The notes beneath the pieces are model-generated. The model was not told the DNA's origin. It saw only the letters and a program-made list of their open reading frames with translations, and made no database searches. 64,000 nt of DNA from a virus (Duplodnaviria > Caudoviricetes), in IMG/VR virus record IMGVR_UViG_3300043499_000058, positions 31 to 64,030 of that record; one strand, 5' to 3'. Below are positions 1,553 to 60,716 of the stretch, piece after piece (positions within the stretch are counted from its first letter, which is position 1; each line of letters begins with the position of its first letter). A program made the position numbers and the translations under genes.

Positions 1553-1599
1553 ATCGATCACCGTCCTTTCGTTTGATTCGGGCCTGAATGACAAGAGGG

Positions 1600-6960: not shown

Positions 6961-7645
6961 CTTGAAGCTCCCGGCGATTCATGATGTAGCTGACAACGCG
7001 TTTGACCTGGGCATCGTTCAGTGGATCGAGGATGTTCTTGATCGCGGCGATGGCATCGATCTCGGGGTCGCCCGTTGACAATCCTGGGACGACAGGGTGG
7101 AAACCTTCGAGCCAGGTACCGCCCCCCGATGGCTGCCCCTTCATGAGCGCGTGGTCGATGACAACGACCTCAGCCTCTTGCACAGCGGCAGGTAGTGACG
7201 CTATTGCGCGCTGCTCGCGGAAGCGACCGGCCTCCTTGCGCTCCTCCTGCCCAAGCGAGTCCTCGTCGTCGGCCGCGATCTCCACAGCCTGTAGCTCACG
7301 CAGGTAAGCCCGGAACGTCGGCAACCATGCCTCGATCAAATCCCACGCCGCCATGCGACCGAAGCTGCGCCGGTCAACGCATGTGCGGTACAGGTAATTT
7401 GTCACCGCACTTGCGTCTTTCCACTTCATGCCTTTGTCAGTCCACAGTTCGTTGGCATCGACGTACTCCCACAGATGCTTGCCAGCCAAACCATGTGGTG
7501 ACAAATGATTCTTGCCGCCGTGACCTTTGACGTGGACACCGGCAGGCGGATGAAGCTCGATGTGCCGGATGAGACGCTGCACCTGCTTGATCAGCGGAAG
7601 GGCGCGGCGTCCGAGTGCCGTGTTTTCAGTCCGTGTTGCTCCCAT
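6953..7645 (-). CDS. hypothetical protein (MGATRTEN...), first gene after a promoter
   Basis: AAGGAGG SD before ATG 7645. Confidence 0.75.
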   Translation of the reverse strand: MGATRTENTALGRRALPLIKQVQRLIRHIELHPPAGVHVKGHGGKNHLSPHGLAGKHLWEYVDANELWTDKGMKWKDASAVTNYLYRTCVDRRSFGRMAAWDLIEAWLPTFRAYLRELQAVEIAADDEDSLGQEERKEAGRFREQRAIASLPAAVQEAEVVVIDHALMKGQPSGGGTWLEGFHPVVPGLSTGDPEIDAIAAIKNILDPLNDAQVKRVVSYIMNRRELQDA

Positions 7646-7683
7646 AGTGGTACCTCCTTCGTTCGGTGATTCGGGCATGTGCG

Positions 7684-7712
7684 AGTTTACCAGCCCTGGG
7701 TCAATTACGCAA
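7684..7712 (-). promoter_or_regulatory. promoter TTGCGT-N17-TAAACT
   Basis: 17-nt spacer containing CCCAGGGCTG, shared with 11270-11298. Confidence 0.7.
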
Positions 7713-8100
7713 GTTCCTCCTCCCGAGTGGTTTCTCGGCGCGTCTGCCACCCTTTGCGAGCAGTATGCGAGCCGAGGTTTCCCTGTTGCCATTGATCATT
7801 GCAATGGCGAGTCCGATGTTCACCTACCTGCTTGACAATCAGGTTCACCCTTTGGTTGTCCAGTTTGTTTTCATTGTCATGATCTACCTGCTTGCGATCT
7901 CCCGGTTTCAGACCAGCAACTTGCCGATGCATGTAGACCTTCCGATATTTGTCAGGACTGACCTTCTGATTCCGCACCGCGTAGCCCGTTGAGGAATCAA
8001 GAAACCATCGATGAACTGACAATTCTGGATACAGCGAGTCATCAACCATCGCGTACCCTGTCACTGTTCCGCCTCGTCCATTCAGCGCGATCCTACGCAA
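7705..8100 (-). mobile_element. HNH homing endonuclease
   Basis: YMHRQVAG...QVDHDNENKLDNQRVNL. Confidence 0.88.
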
Positions 8101-11269: not shown

Positions 11270-11298
11270 ACCTTATCAGCCCTGGGCTAGTTACGCAA
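11270..11298 (-). promoter_or_regulatory. promoter TTGCGT-N17-TAAGGT
   Basis: near copy of 7684-7712. Confidence 0.7.
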
Positions 11299-11499
11299 GT
11301 CCGCATCCACAGGGCCGAGATCAGGGACGCCTAGGAGATCGAGAACTGCGCGCCAGTGGCGGCACGTCTTACGCCCCGAGTACCCGTCGCAGGTGCAGCC
11401 GCCTTCAGGCCAGTCCGTAGTGACAAAGCCGAGATCGACCGTGTGCCATTCATCCGGCGCGCTTCCGCTTTGAACGAGGAAGTGTGCGCGCCCCACCAT
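11287..11499 (-). CDS. SWIM zinc-finger protein
   Basis: GCTCDGYSGRKTCRH (CxC-x-CxH). Confidence 0.75.
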   Translation of the reverse strand: MVGRAHFLVQSGSAPDEWHTVDLGFVTTDWPEGGCTCDGYSGRKTCRHWRAVLDLLGVPDLGPVDADLRN

Positions 11500-22453: not shown

Positions 22454-23483
22454 TACGACGTTCGGGCTTTGTCACTTTCAGATCGATACCACGTTCGCGG
22501 AGTCTCCGCTTGAACGCTGACAACGAGATTGCGTTTTCGATGATGCGCCAACTCTCCTTTCCTGTCAATTCTGCCGGGTCGCCTTTCCCCTTCGGGTACA
22601 GGCACACGAAGTTCGGAATGCTTGTCAGTTTCTCCGAGGCCATGATGATGTTTTTCACCCCGGCCCCGTCTCTATCGAACATGTGGTAGATGCGCTTCGG
22701 GCGAAAGCTGCGAATGATCTGAGCCTGTCTGTCTGACAAACCTGTTCCGAGAATTCCACCTGCCGGTACCCCGTACTCCTGCTGGCAGATCGTGTCCAGC
22801 GATCCCTCCACAAGAACGAGGCCGAGAGAGGATACCTGCTTCCTGTCCAACTTGCAAGCGCCGAACAGAACGGCCGTCTTGGTGGCTCCCTCGGGCCAGT
22901 AGAGGTATTTCGGCCAGTCCTTCTCACGCACAGCGCGCTTGATCAGGAACCGGGTGATCCCTCGTTCATCGTCGGCGGGGATGACAATGCGCCGGTCGTC
23001 AGCGTCCCACCCAAGCCCCCACGCAGAGATCGCGCCTCCTCCAATGCCGCGCGTCTCAAGGTACTCAAGCGCGACGGCAGGCAGGTACCGATCAAAGCTG
23101 CCGAGATCCTCGGGTTTGTCAGGAGCATCGACCGGCCGAGCAAGCCTAACCTTCCCGTCAGTTCCACGCCGCTTTCGTTTCGACGCAGGGCCAAGCTCAA
23201 CCCTTGTGTGTCGAACGATAAGTTTGCGAGCTTCTTTTTCACTGATCCCCTTGATCTTGGCGATGGCCTTCTCGTACGTGCCTGAAATCCCACAGGACGC
23301 GAAGCAATGAACGAGAGGCTTATCGAGGTTTACCTGAAAATGCCGCTTGTTCGATCCATGCTCCGGGTTCGGACAAACTACCAGGGGCGCGAACCCACCT
23401 GACAAGTCAGCGTTGGGCGGGAAGTCTACGAACTCCTCCCACAACGCCGCGCCATCGAGTTTGCGCCCCCGGTAGTTGATCAC
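22428..23483 (-). CDS. DNA primase (Zn-binding plus TOPRIM)
   Basis: CP..H...HCF.C, LVEGSLD, FDRDGAG, KGDP. Confidence 0.9.
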   Translation of the reverse strand: MINYRGRKLDGAALWEEFVDFPPNADLSGGFAPLVVCPNPEHGSNKRHFQVNLDKPLVHCFASCGISGTYEKAIAKIKGISEKEARKLIVRHTRVELGPASKRKRRGTDGKVRLARPVDAPDKPEDLGSFDRYLPAVALEYLETRGIGGGAISAWGLGWDADDRRIVIPADDERGITRFLIKRAVREKDWPKYLYWPEGATKTAVLFGACKLDRKQVSSLGLVLVEGSLDTICQQEYGVPAGGILGTGLSDRQAQIIRSFRPKRIYHMFDRDGAGVKNIIMASEKLTSIPNFVCLYPKGKGDPAELTGKESWRIIENAISLSAFKRRLRERGIDLKVTKPERRNERKVPIG

Positions 23484-26029: not shown

Positions 26030-26394
26030 CGAATCCAAACTCCTGCGATGAAAGCCTTGTTGATCCAGACCTTCTTGCCTCGATCTTTCACAGCATCAAG
26101 TCCGCCGCCCATTAGCTCGAACTCGACTGCATACGTGTCTACATGACAAACCATCGCTGCGATGGTGTCATCGGCCGAGAGTAGACCATCGCTCGGTGTT
26201 GCGAAGTCTGCGGCGAGAACAAGATCGACCAACGTTTTGTCACGCTTGGCTTTGATCAGCGCCATGTCGTATCCGTACTCGCGCTTGGGCGCGCGGCCAT
26301 GCCGCTTGCGTTCAACCATTACTGCTTCCAAGTGAACCTCCTTGTCGGGCCTGACAATCAGAGAGTGCGACCAAGAGAAGCGGGGAGAGGCCAT
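26026..26394 (-). CDS. hypothetical protein, first gene of the replication operon
   Basis: GGGAGGGG SD downstream of a promoter. Confidence 0.65.
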   Translation of the reverse strand: MASPRFSWSHSLIVRPDKEVHLEAVMVERKRHGRAPKREYGYDMALIKAKRDKTLVDLVLAADFATPSDGLLSADDTIAAMVCHVDTYAVEFELMGGGLDAVKDRGKKVWINKAFIAGVWIR

Positions 26395-26430
26395 AGCCCC
26401 TCCCCTGCACCTGATCGTCACCCAACCGGG

Positions 26431-26460
26431 ACAGTAGCATCGAACCTCATTGGGCGTCAA
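26431..26460 (-). promoter_or_regulatory. promoter TTGACG-N18-TACTGT
   Basis: shares TGCTACTGTCCC with the 1600 promoter. Confidence 0.7.
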
Positions 26461-26465
26461 GGGAC

Positions 26466-26553
26466 TGCTGTACGGGCCTGTGAGGGCCAGGGAGCGCCGG
26501 ATCGACCTTTCGGGTACCCCGCCGCTTTCCCGACCCTCACAGGCCGTACAGCA
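26466..26553. repeat. 20-bp inverted repeat / long hairpin
   Basis: TGCTGTACGGGCCTGTGAGGG (26466-26486) vs CCCTCACAGGCCGTACAGCA (26534-26553), one bulge. Confidence 0.85.
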
Positions 26554-57941: not shown

Positions 57942-58521
57942 TCGCTTCCGAGACGATGGCGTCCAGTTCGGTTGTCAGTTGTGCGATGCGCTTCTGAGTT
58001 TCGAGCGGCAACGCTTCGAGCTTGCTGAAAAAGTCGTCACTCAATTCGTGCTGATGCTGCTCGGTCTTGGTGACAACAGATTCGGACTTGTTGACCTTCG
58101 TGATCCCGACGCGATCCAGACCCTCCACGATTGCGTTGAGCCTGATCTTTGCGTCCGGTTCATGCCGAGCAATTTCGAGCAGACCTTCTGTCAGTTCGAC
58201 AGAGGCATCCTTCATGTGGTTGACAGCGCCCGCAACCTTGTCGGCAGCGACGATGGCCACCTTTGCCTGAAAATCATCGTCCTCGCCCCACGCCTTGACA
58301 AGCCCGGTCTGGATGTTCAGCGAGTCCGAGATGTAGCGCCAGGAGTAACCGACCGCCTTGAGAACGGCCGCGTAGTCCCTGGCCCACGAAAGCTCATGTG
58401 CGTTCAGTTCAGCCAGGTCGGTGATCTTTTTCACCTTCCGCTTGCTGAACAGTGTCCCACCTGACTTCCTGCGCGCGAGGCCGACCACGATTTCCTCGGC
58501 GGTTGTGTCCTTACGCGGCAC
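57928..58521 (-). CDS. terminase small subunit-like HTH protein
   Basis: HTH (GYSWRYISDSLNI...W..DDDF), RLNA...LDRVG. Confidence 0.65.
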   Translation of the reverse strand: MPRKDTTAEEIVVGLARRKSGGTLFSKRKVKKITDLAELNAHELSWARDYAAVLKAVGYSWRYISDSLNIQTGLVKAWGEDDDFQAKVAIVAADKVAGAVNHMKDASVELTEGLLEIARHEPDAKIRLNAIVEGLDRVGITKVNKSESVVTKTEQHQHELSDDFFSKLEALPLETQKRIAQLTTELDAIVSEASGHE

Positions 58522-60229
58522 TTGAAATCACACTCCCTGACCGTGCAAAAAGCTCCCCGACGGAAGCTGAAATTGAGATATGCGGCTTTTTCATCGTTGC
58601 GATCTCGCAGAACATGTCGGCGTGGTGCCAGTGATCCGGGTTCTTGTTTTTCACCCAACGCCGAATGTTACGGCCCTTGGTGTCCTCCTCCTCGGACGCC
58701 GCCATCTGACAAAGCTGGTACATGTAACCGTTGTACGGCAACCGAGGCATGATCTCCCCGATTGTCTCCACGTCAGAGGGCATGATCATCCGCCCGCCCA
58801 TGAGCCTACCTACGTGCATGTCGAACGCGTCGGTGCGGTCGATGTTCACCTTACCAACCTCGCCCGCCTTGGGCGTGTTGAAAACGCCTGTCTCGGCCTG
58901 GTCAGGTCGATCCTGCTCGAAGCCGATCCAGACCCTCTTGTGGTATTTCAGGGCCAGCTTCTTGGCCTCGCTCTTTTCAGGGTGGGCATCGATGATGCAG
59001 GTGAAAGAGCCGAGTCCCGCCAGGAAGGTGTCCAACTGATCCCACATCGGGTTGGCGGGTTTGTCAGCGAAGATTTTGGCTTGCCAGAAAATGCGACGGC
59101 CGTAACGGTCGATGTAGTCGGCCCTGACATGCAGGACGTTGCCGACATCGACGCCGACGTACACAGGGCCGGTCGGCAGTCCGCCTTGGCTGTGCCCCGA
59201 CTTCGGGATGCACTTGCGGATCAATTCAGGTGTGATCTGATCCCCGGCGCTGACAAACGGTTCACCACGGTTGTTGTTGTACCAAGCTCGCAGTTTCTTT
59301 GGCTGGACTTGCCCCAGGAAGTAGTTTTCCATGAAGCCAGCGATTGTCTGCGTGGGTGAGTTGAGTTGGTTGATCTGATAGCCGCGCTTACGTCCGCCTG
59401 GGTTGTCACTCTCCCAGGTGCCGAACGCGTTAGCAGCGGCGCGCTCTTGATCGGAAATCTCCTTGTGGCAGTAGACGCACCGAACGCTGCACTCCTCGGC
59501 CATGTCGCCAATGACAATGTTTTCGTCCACTGTGATCGTTTGTCTGCGCGAGCAATGCGGACAGGGGATGTACCAACGGTGCTGATCGCTTGCGTGCCAT
59601 GCGTCCTCTGCGTCTACGCCGTGACCCGGCGCGGTCGGGGTTGACAATTCGGTCTTGCGCTTGATGTCCGATCCGTCGAGCCGCGCCATCGCCTCGGGGA
59701 TGTTGTCCTCGATCATTTTGTCACGCTCGTCCATGACAAGACAATCGGCGGGGATCTCTCGAAGTTCAGTCCAGATGTTCGTACCTCGGATGCGAAGCGC
59801 GATGTCATCGATGGACTGCTTGTGCAGGCGGTTGTCAACGTTCTTGAAGTGGGCCTTTAGCTCCGCGTTCGAGTCGATGATCGGGTCGATCCGGCCCTGG
59901 ACAAAGGGGATAGCTCCGGTTTTCAATGGCATGAGGTAAAGCTGGTGCCACTTCCTTTTCACGATCCAGTGGAACGTCCTGACAAGGAAAATCGTTGTCA
60001 GTCCCATCTGCGCCCCCTTGGGCACGATGATCCACTCAGACTCGTCGCGGATGATGTCGCGTTGGAACTCGCGCCCGCGCATGTCGAAAGGATGTCCGTC
60101 TACTCTCAGCTTCAAGAGATCGGCCCAAGCGTCCGGGTATGCCTGTGCGTTCGCACGCGCTGACATACGGCTGCGGGGAGCAACCACAACCGGCTTGTTT
60201 ACAGGAATTTTGGCTGTTTTACGGGCCAC
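58511..60229 (-). CDS. terminase large subunit (lambda GpA family)
   Basis: KGAQMGLT, MDERD, STPT, CPHC..Q, GVDVG, PDH. Confidence 0.92.
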   Translation of the reverse strand: MARKTAKIPVNKPVVVAPRSRMSARANAQAYPDAWADLLKLRVDGHPFDMRGREFQRDIIRDESEWIIVPKGAQMGLTTIFLVRTFHWIVKRKWHQLYLMPLKTGAIPFVQGRIDPIIDSNAELKAHFKNVDNRLHKQSIDDIALRIRGTNIWTELREIPADCLVMDERDKMIEDNIPEAMARLDGSDIKRKTELSTPTAPGHGVDAEDAWHASDQHRWYIPCPHCSRRQTITVDENIVIGDMAEECSVRCVYCHKEISDQERAAANAFGTWESDNPGGRKRGYQINQLNSPTQTIAGFMENYFLGQVQPKKLRAWYNNNRGEPFVSAGDQITPELIRKCIPKSGHSQGGLPTGPVYVGVDVGNVLHVRADYIDRYGRRIFWQAKIFADKPANPMWDQLDTFLAGLGSFTCIIDAHPEKSEAKKLALKYHKRVWIGFEQDRPDQAETGVFNTPKAGEVGKVNIDRTDAFDMHVGRLMGGRMIMPSDVETIGEIMPRLPYNGYMYQLCQMAASEEEDTKGRNIRRWVKNKNPDHWHHADMFCEIATMKKPHISISASVGELFARSGSVISSAA

Positions 60230-60261
60230 TGAAAAGGGGCGGCTTTTGCACCGCTGATTTC

Positions 60262-60290
60262 AGTGTAGCCGGTGCCTGTCAGGGTGAAAA
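60262..60290 (-). promoter_or_regulatory. candidate promoter of the structural operon, TTTTCA-N17-TACACT
   Basis: good -10 and 17-nt spacer directly upstream of terminase. Confidence 0.55.
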
Positions 60291-60316
60291 GAAGGGCCGG
60301 GGTTTCCCCCGGCCCT
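60286..60316 (-). terminator. intrinsic terminator
   Basis: AGGGCCGGGG-GAAA-CCCCGGCCCT then TCTTTT. Confidence 0.85.
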
Positions 60317-60352
60317 CGGCCCGAATCGCCGCGCTCTCGGAAGCGGCAGCGA
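60286..60352 (-). ncRNA. candidate small RNA of about 67 nt
   Basis: own promoter, two hairpins, terminator, no ORF. Confidence 0.55.
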
Positions 60353-60358
60353 GAGATC

Positions 60359-60388
60359 AGCGTAGTGCGTACCTCACCGGCTTGTCAA
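60359..60388 (-). promoter_or_regulatory. promoter TTGACA-N18-TACGCT
   Basis: perfect -35 and TAnnnT. Confidence 0.65.
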
Positions 60389-60437
60389 ACCGGCTAGAAG
60401 TCCTCCCCTAGTGCTTCCTCCCCGAATCTCGGGAACC

Positions 60438-60686
60438 CTATTTTGTCATCGAACCAATAGTTTTCAGGAACGAGATCAAGCGGTACCTGAAACCCCATGT
60501 CAAACCATGCCTGACATTCTTTGAGGGTGAACCGTTGGGGATCACGAATGACAATGTAACCGTGTCCGAAGGGTAAACGAGTCGTGGCGTCACGTCGAAG
60601 TTGACAATCTTCTCGGAACCGTTTGGCAAGCTGAAAACCACTCGCGCGGATTCGAGCATCATGACGCCGTGCGTTGAGTCGGCCAT
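60438..60686 (-). CDS. hypothetical protein (alternative frame 60394-60711 also open)
   Basis: very strong SD GGGGAGGAG before ATG 60686. Confidence 0.5.
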   Translation of the reverse strand: MADSTHGVMMLESARVVFSLPNGSEKIVNFDVTPRLVYPSDTVTLSFVIPNGSPSKNVRHGLTWGFRYRLISFLKTIGSMTK

Positions 60687-60716
60687 ATCTCCTCCCCTTT
60701 ACTCCGGCCACGCCGG

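Follow-up and report, generated by a model that had tools for sequence, protein, structure and literature searches.

A conserved structured RNA element upstream of the terminase gene in uncultured soil phages, with candidate pairing sites in early-gene leaders

The DNA analysed here, referred to as the window, is a stretch of 64,000 nucleotides that covers positions 31-64030 of a 64,030-base IMG/VR viral record, the completeness of which is rated at about 90%. The 64-kb window has a G+C content of 58%, all of its plausible genes lie on the minus strand, and no tRNA genes were found in it. The structural block begins with a gene for a large terminase subunit of the gpA type, downstream of which are a portal gene and then other structural genes. 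On the upstream side are small accessory genes, the nearest of which encodes a protein of 105 amino acids that has no match in Pfam or PHROG and whose C-terminus is common to L027 and L028. A gap of 164 nt separates this gene from the terminase gene, and the element described here sits in that gap (Table 1). There is no minus-strand open reading frame (ORF) of at least 30 aa between 60393 and 60230; the plus-strand ORFs in the gap are mechanical, every gene of the genome being on the minus strand.

Some details of the gene boundaries were revised with the help of C84, a contig of 70,839 bases from a metagenome-assembled genome (MAG) labelled uncultured Acidobacteria, the terminase of which is 83% identical to that of the window. 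The end of the upstream gene was corrected from 60438 to 60394, and an 82-aa ATG ORF was rejected as the upstream gene. A second GATTCGGGG (60428-60421) was rejected as part of the element, as it encodes RFGE inside the upstream gene and is not kept in C84. The small hairpin in the terminase leader is ACGGC/GCCGU in C84, which is compensatory relative to the window, and the terminase leader of L004 has GGACGGG/CCCGTCC followed by TTTTTCA-ATG.

Table 1. Positions of the candidate small-RNA unit, the adjoining genes and the candidate pairing sites in the window
Feature	Positions	Strand	Basis or remark
Large terminase subunit gene, gpA type, first of structural block	58511..60229	-	PHROG 675 E = 1.7e-80; Pfam GpA_ATPase E = 3e-27
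Small hairpin GCGGU/GCCGC in terminase leader, then CCCUUUUCA and GTG start, without Shine-Dalgarno (SD) sequence	60239..60254	-	Sequence
Candidate late (terminase) promoter, TTTTCA-17 nt-TACACT, overlapping the terminator tail	60262..60290	-	Consensus match
Intrinsic terminator, GGGCCGGGG-GAAA-CCCCGGCCC (60315-60294) and UUCUUUU (60293-60287)	60287..60315	-	9-bp G+C stem, GAAA loop
Linker UUCGGGCCGA, candidate seed, unpaired	60316..60325	-	Minimum free energy (MFE) and centroid structures
Hairpin P1 (5' stem-loop): UCGCUGC, bulged C, GCUU, loop CCGA, GAGC, GCGGCGA	60326..60352	-	Predicted fold
-10 hexamer TACGCT	60359..60364	-	18-nt spacer from TTGACA; weak, 3/6 match to TATAAT
-35 hexamer TTGACA	60383..60388	-	5 nt past stop codon of upstream gene
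105-aa gene, role unassigned, Arg-rich N-terminus	60394..60711	-	Frame fits synonymous differences versus C84
Candidate target 1: GGCCCGAAUC, leader of lysine-rich H1-like gene (ATG 1552)	1575..1584	-	-32 to -23 relative to start; rank 2/68
Candidate target 2: GCCCGAAUC, leader of 230-aa gene (ATG 7645)	7668..7676	-	Begins 31 nt before start; rank 1/68
Candidate target 3: GCCCGAA, 414-aa gene beside primase gene	22461..22467	-	32 nt before TTG start (22438); 7 bp
Candidate target 4: GGCCCGA abutting SD AAGGAGG, small basic-protein gene	26345..26351	-	Same box in C84 orthologue

The letters that a sequence-only reading of the window had quoted for a promoter, a hairpin, a linker and a terminator are all found on the minus strand at the positions in Table 1. 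The predicted transcript of 67 nt has a folding energy of -41.4 kcal/mol (z = -3.3), and AUUCGGGC is unpaired in both its MFE and centroid folds. Pairing of the P1 loop with the linker as a pseudoknot was considered and rejected, the CCGA loop being found in the window and C84 only, as was a T-arm or tRNA-like reading of GUUCGGG, for which there is no consistent stem. A simple promoter and terminator scanner flagged neither the promoter of the unit, in which the -10 matches at only 3 of 6 positions, nor its terminator. TGACAA is 12-fold over-represented in the window (425 occurrences against 34 expected), and a lone TTGACA is therefore poor promoter evidence in this genome.

Relatives of the terminase, with identities of 44-56%, were found among viral and metagenome contigs, and the layout of the window recurs upstream of their genes: first a hairpin, then UUCGGG and a short linker, and finally a terminator rich in G+C. 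Aligning the motif with MAFFT did not bring out its structure (RNAalifold returned a fold without P1, and zero pairs on alignment A3), and a covariance model was therefore seeded from two sequences and then iterated. The two-sequence model recovered the window and other members, and was rebuilt as model R2. Searches with R2 gave one full-length match at the expected place in 20 of 27, 3 of 4 and 3 of 9 sources. In total the motif was found in 26 phage contigs, representing 24 distinct sequences, in each case as a single copy directly upstream of the terminase gene. Four of the sequences recovered (L024, at 35.9 bits, L182, L013 and L004) lay outside the training set of the model. The motif is absent at three terminase loci for which upstream sequence was present (L006, L209 and L219). 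Each of the two whole genomes searched, the window and C84, contains a single strong copy; for three further relatives of the window, the IMG/VR records G155, G156 and G157, the search covered loci of about 20 kb around the terminase gene.

Both helices of the motif are conserved as pairs rather than as letters. In an alignment of 16 sequences, which was fitted to the structure of the model and so favours that structure, the two sides can pair in 96.5% of pair cells, against 74.2% in shuffled alignments, and double changes are seen in 24 of 25 pairs; the observed values were reached by none of 500 shuffles, and slid controls of the same test were 40-60% paired. In P1 both sides have changed at all ten pairs across these 16 sequences, with 93.8% of cells paired, and in helix 2, the terminator stem, this is so at 14 of 15 pairs, with 98.5% of cells paired. 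Some of the pairs are G-U, which would be A-C mismatches on the other strand, and the fold is therefore specific to the terminase-sense strand. The best-conserved letters of the family are those of the unpaired core: UUCGGG is exact in 18 of the 24 distinct members, and UCGG is invariant in alignment A1. L182 and L013 are members without UUCGGG, and a subgroup (L021, L164 and L024) has a poor U run at the terminator. The linkers of G155 and G157 are partly occluded in the predicted fold if the 5' end is placed further upstream. The unit is a conserved structured RNA element.

The terminator half of the unit is an ordinary, host-type one, and terminators of the same GAGGGCCGG...CCGGCCCUCUUUU type are common in Acidobacteriota genomes. 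A search of 151 Acidobacteriota genomes with R2 gave matches in 17, of which all eight that were inspected are ordinary terminators without UUCGGG; the first-look filter used in that search missed the known copy in C84, so the result says nothing about absence. No Rfam 15 family was matched anywhere in the window. The best local Rfam matches are below threshold, namely sX12 (24.3 bits against a gathering score of 106) and SorY (16.3 against 111), with which the unit shares the shape of a two-hairpin small RNA (sRNA) with a terminal terminator without being a member of either. A similarity search against phage records gave no match, three more terminase queries gave no additional close relatives beyond an earlier listing that includes terminases 66-90% identical to that of the window, several of them on contigs of 40-73 kb, and in a narrow search of the literature the motif was not described. 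Searching viral contigs for the pattern TTCGGG..GAGGGYCGG gave, among the matches listed, nearly all chance occurrences in G+C-rich phages and one that bears a terminator, and a pattern made from the P1 loop and core of the window and C84 gave six matches, all of them by chance.

The sequence-only reading had also proposed that the linker is antisense to the leaders of two phage genes. Both matches are exact: GAUUCGGGCC (60327-60318) is the complement of GGCCCGAAUC (1584-1575), a 10-nt match in the leader of the H1-like gene, and GAUUCGGGC is the complement of GCCCGAAUC (7676-7668), a 9-nt match in the leader of the 230-aa gene. The first two letters of the 10-mer, GA, form the closing pairs of P1, which would leave about 8 nt free. 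The same reading had cautioned that matches of this length can arise by chance, which is borne out by counts in shuffled sequence and by a duplex-energy scan that does not single out the leaders. GCCCGAATC occurs three times on both strands against 0.97 expected, a count of 3 being reached in 5 of 100 shuffles, and the 10-mer with at most one mismatch occurs 6 times against 6.13 expected, with no excess. When the whole sense strand was scanned for duplex energy, the leader at 7645 came ninth and the H1-like leader fell outside the top 15, with many coding sites above both. Near start codons, CCCGA[AG] is not enriched, with 6 occurrences in the window against 5.37 expected and 5 in C84 against 5.07, on crude gene calls. 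The letter match alone is weak; the case is carried by position and conservation.

With regard to position, the two named leaders rank first and second among the 68 start regions in the window that are preceded by an SD sequence. Counting against the target reading, three of the boxes, at -35 to -23, are upstream of the stretch that a ribosome normally covers. The description of the targets as promoter-proximal genes is too narrow, as a third site lies at an internal gene junction.

Conservation of the sites was compared in four genomes: the window, C84, G155 and G157. G155, G156 and G157 are about 68-72% related to the window (72% for G155), and G155, G157 and C84 are whole or near-whole. The linkers are GAUUCGGGCC in the window, GUUUCGGGCC in C84, GUUUCGGGUAC in G155 and GUUUCGGGCUA in G157. 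Pairing with the H1-like leader amounts to 10 bp in the window, 12 bp in C84 (one G-U) and 12 bp in G155 (three G-U), and is lost in G157. The leader of the 230-aa gene pairs over 9 bp in the window and 8 bp in C84, where the orthologue keeps GGCCCGAA and ranks second of 70; no orthologue of this gene was found in G155-G157. The orthologues of the two named leaders take ranks 1 and 2 of 70 in C84. The leader of the 414-aa gene pairs over 7 bp in the window, 9 bp in G157 and 11 bp in each of C84 and G155. Its box lies in another frame of the upstream gene in C84 than it does in the window, which indicates that the DNA letters are kept and not the protein. The G155 orthologue of the small basic-protein gene carries ACCCGAAC. 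In nine of the ten rows for three gene families, the distance from the beginning of the box to the start codon is 27-35 nt, the exception being the H1-like gene of G157.

Five orthologue pairs appear in the top-five lists of the four genomes, compared with 1.17 on average when the linkers are shuffled by the same permutation, and 5 was reached in 1 of 60 such shuffles. At the H1-like site of G155 a G-C pair has become U-A and an A-U pair has become G-C, i.e. two double, compensatory changes. The linker of the window has an A where the other three have a U, and both leaders of the window have the matching U (GAAUC versus GAGAC/GAAAC). The fraction of genome windows whose pairing equals or exceeds that of the H1-like leader is 0.021 in the window, 0.0012 in C84, 0.029 in G155 and 0.83 in G157. 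In a matrix of RNAs against leaders across the genomes, two of four columns, those of G155 and G157, have a best pair other than the cognate one. Since the four genomes are related by descent, they do not amount to four independent tests when they agree. No homologue of the H1-like gene was found in three fragments searched, and nothing consistent was seen when complements of the linker were sought in the short flanks of distant relatives, the early regions of which lie off those contigs.

Together, this lends moderate support to the proposal that the RNA regulates the two named leaders in trans. The ranks, the orthologue pairs and the compensatory changes speak for it; the energy scan of the whole strand, the loss in G157, the lack of box enrichment near starts and the cognate pairs that are not always best speak against it. 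Co-variation of seed and target, which had been suggested as a check, is seen in the double changes of G155 and in the A/U match of the window and fails for the H1-like pairing of G157.

Transcription signals recur around the motif in the family as a whole. A TTGACA matched at at least five of six positions and lying 16-18 nt from a TAnnnN box is found just before the motif in 14 of 24 members. This recurrence of the -35 holds whatever the upstream gene, which varies among members while the terminase neighbour is constant. The window, C84, G155 and G157 all retain TTGACA-N17/18-TAC(G/C/T)(C/T)T with diverged spacers, the -10 being TACCCT in C84 and G155 at the same spacing as in the window. 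Past the motif, 13 of 19 members have a TAnnnT hexamer at a distance of 14-25 nt, for which the last letters of the T run provide a TTG at the right spacing. The block CTGACAG..TACACTGA.ATC is common to the window and C84 and is kept in G155, with TACACT. We infer a promoter role for the site after the terminator from these letters, and a terminator-promoter module is a description that fits the 3' side of the unit. With a second promoter-like site after the terminator, the unit looks like an independent small-RNA unit, and it probably makes its own folded RNA of about 65 nt. Among eight runs from four studies, none was listed as an RNA run with the region. The earlier proposal of a small-RNA unit without an ORF at the boundary of the structural operon is well supported, since the unit is conserved, both of its helices covary, its promoter recurs and its terminator is of the host type.

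The main rival to a small-RNA gene is that the unit is the terminated leader of the late operon, resembling the PR'-6S RNA-tR' arrangement of lambda, with the promoter before P1 as the late promoter. The short RNA would then be a default product, and a phage factor, possibly reading P1 and UUCGGG in the manner of nut or put sites, would permit readthrough into the terminase gene. A promoter followed by a strong terminator within about 65 nt, directly before the first structural gene, is in keeping with such a leader, as is an invariant unpaired core beside a hairpin, which resembles a protein- or polymerase-binding RNA site. L004 also has a second good terminator that abuts the ATG of its terminase gene, and a weaker look-alike is present in the window and C84. 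A precedent for a short RNA of this kind is StxS (PMC7873438), and trans action of the same RNA could be compatible with a late leader, as for StxS. However, the TTG and -10-like hexamer past the terminator, present in 13 of 19 members and kept in C84 and G155, match the consensus of a possible promoter of the terminase gene itself. The 18 window proteins scanned with Pfam and PHROGs include no member of a Q-, N- or other antiterminator family, and a late leader leaves the complementary boxes and their co-variation unexplained. The late-leader model is unlikely.

It is also conceivable, and less probable again, that the unit belongs to the 3' end of the upstream operon instead of being a separate gene, in which case P1 and UUCGGG would serve as a protein-binding, processing or stabilising signal and the leader matches would be due to chance or to a shared protein-binding word. 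The motif does start 12-55 nt past the stop codon of varying upstream genes, and in L005, L007 and L011, where the -35 is poor, that stop codon falls within the -10-like box; the leader box, moreover, is not generally enriched near starts. A 3' end would not call for a correctly spaced TTGACA-type -35, which 14 of 24 members have whichever gene is upstream, and the leaders hold the complement of the linker and not the same word, which is a misfit for a shared RNA-binding protein. The orthologue-consistent top ranks and the compensatory changes argue against chance.

A DNA-level element, i.e. a packaging (cos/pac) site or an operator for a late regulator beside the terminase gene, is very improbable: the unit does lie directly upstream of a gpA-type terminase gene, where the cos region of lambda and typical cos regions are found, and its 7-9 letters are met again, in one orientation or the other, close to a few promoters, but both helices keep their pairing as the letters change, using strand-specific G-U pairs, the spacing between the core and the next promoter changes as the terminator stem becomes longer or shorter, and the contigs of relatives do not share a common end point inside the motif.

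The reading that we prefer, to which we give a little less than an even chance, is that the unit is a small-RNA gene, the UUCGGG stretch of which acts in trans on GCCCGA(A) boxes of a few early and replication genes. Under the small-RNA reading, a host polymerase of the sigma-70 type would start about 7 nt past TACGCT and make a product of about 65 nt, consisting of the 5' hairpin P1, an unpaired (A)UUCGGGCC and the intrinsic terminator. The same terminator would also close the upstream block of accessory genes, and a separate, weaker promoter over the terminator tail would drive the terminase and structural genes. The exposed stretch is predicted to pair with GCCCGA(A) boxes that precede strong ribosome-binding sites (RBSs) by between a few and about 15 nt. 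Candidate targets are the messages for the H1-like DNA-binding protein, the 230-aa protein, the 414-aa protein beside primase and the small basic protein, which would be the phage's own early or replication-module mRNAs. The effect may be lowered translation or stability of these messages; the sign is a guess that leans slightly towards repression. We infer the transcription, termination, in vivo pairing and effect of the RNA from sequence features.

The host of this phage family is probably a member of the Acidobacteriota. A wider picture, which we put forward tentatively and with more doubt than the small-RNA reading itself, is that these soil phages, probably of Acidobacteriota, carry a self-contained post-transcriptional switch. 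In that picture a 65-nt RNA from the early/late boundary, with an invariant UUCGGG seed, would co-regulate abundant DNA-binding and replication proteins through GCCCGAA boxes at a fixed distance upstream of unusually strong RBSs.

Base-pairing small RNAs of phages are known mostly from prophages of E. coli, where they act on host genes. If the small-RNA reading is true, the present unit would represent a conserved RNA family of uncultured soil phages that appears to regulate early genes of the same phage from a constant position where the early and late regions meet, adding a post-transcriptional layer to the timing of phage development. The unit would also serve as an annotation marker for a gene-less gap that is now blank in such genomes, and the family provides a covariance model and a short seed-and-box rule. 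There is also a methodological lesson, namely that a match of 9-10 nt is no evidence by itself, and that here the case was made by conserved position and co-variation across relatives.

Of the known systems with which the unit can be compared, one is StxS, together with the 6S RNA of lambda, the short transcript that runs from the late promoter PR' to the terminator tR' in lambdoid and Stx phages. StxS base-pairs with the ribosome-binding region of the phage-borne stx1B and with a host message (PMC7873438). The likeness lies in a promoter that is followed at once by an intrinsic terminator, just before the late genes. In contrast, the present unit has a second promoter-like site past the terminator, and there is no Q-type antiterminator among the 18 proteins scanned. 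The present RNA is also much shorter, it has early and replication genes of the phage itself as candidate targets, its host is probably one of the Acidobacteriota, and it has no sequence or Rfam relationship to StxS/6S.

Other comparisons are with RNA sites that act in the nascent transcript. The nut sites of lambda (boxA/boxB) and the put sites of HK022 consist of a hairpin and a conserved unpaired word in nascent RNA. The unit resembles them in having a hairpin and an unpaired word, placed shortly after a promoter and before a terminator. It differs from them in order and sequence, in having one hairpin with the terminator within 10 nt, and in that no N-like partner was found among the proteins scanned.

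The small RNAs DicF, AsxR and Pas are trans-encoded base-pairing sRNAs of prophages that act mainly against host messages or other sRNAs in lysogens. The plan of the unit is like theirs: a promoter of its own, a hairpin at the 5' end, a seed that is short, conserved and single-stranded, and an intrinsic terminator that ends in a U tail. Pairing near the RBS, as in those sRNAs, is predicted for the present family. Unlike them, the present family is fixed before the terminase gene of soil phages of 60-70 kb that are seemingly of a virulent type and oriented on a single strand, and its best candidate targets are genes of the phage.

Two overlapping open frames lie upstream of the small-RNA unit in the window (see the table for coordinates). 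The 82-aa frame has an ATG start preceded by a perfect SD. The 105-aa frame, which starts at GTG, is favoured by the synonymous differences between the window and C84, an 83%-related phage, and also by its C-terminus, which is common to two contigs of terminase relatives, L027 and L028 (PRFGE..L.DDF). In the middle part, conservation is similar in either frame.

On the other side of the unit, a small hairpin, followed by CCCUUUUCA, lies ahead of the GTG of the window's large terminase gene, and this hairpin is kept in C84 via compensatory changes. In another terminase relative, L004, a full terminator-like hairpin and TTTTTCA are found immediately 5' of the terminase ATG.

Boxes that could pair with a small-RNA linker occur elsewhere. 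In the terminase relative L002, GACCCGA(A), the complement of that contig's own linker core UUCGGGUC, occurs three times within a single non-coding stretch, with one copy inside a promoter spacer and one immediately 5' of GGAG..ATG. In the window, the leader bearing the GGCCCGA box, a candidate pairing site for the linker, comes after two hairpins, the second resembling a terminator whose T run is weak. The region holding these hairpins scores 17.4 bits (E = 0.12) with R2, the covariance model of the small-RNA motif, and could represent a further short leader or small-RNA unit.

A second promoter class, perhaps the target site of a phage regulator, is present in two copies in the window and two in C84. 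The hexamer TGACAA/TTGTCA is over-represented in the window (425 copies against 34 expected, both strands, positions 1-64000), and no shuffle came near the observed count. Its copies overlap several -35 hexamers and gene junctions.

Features in the window and in related contigs
Feature	Location	Strand	Details
Second promoter class	window 7690-7720 and 11270-11300	minus	TTGCGTAA....CCCAGGGCTG.TAA; spacer conserved
Hexamer pair, then two hairpins	window 26372-26470	minus	TTGACG-N17-TACTGT
Terminase start region	window 60227-60254	minus	GTG start without SD
Two overlapping open frames	window 60394-60711 and 60438-60686	minus	
Non-coding stretch, ~350 nt	L002 890-1250		3 kb upstream of L002 small-RNA motif
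Inserted ORF, 114-120 aa	L186 2564-2937 (C84)		directly after small-RNA terminator

In C84 the small-RNA terminator is followed by an inserted ORF whose product contains CxxC pairs and matches HNH weakly (E = 0.12). Downstream of this ORF is a second copy of the terminator 3' half and T run, and this 3'-half copy is similar to the window's version. The insert looks like a homing-endonuclease cassette that carried in or preserved a replacement terminator.
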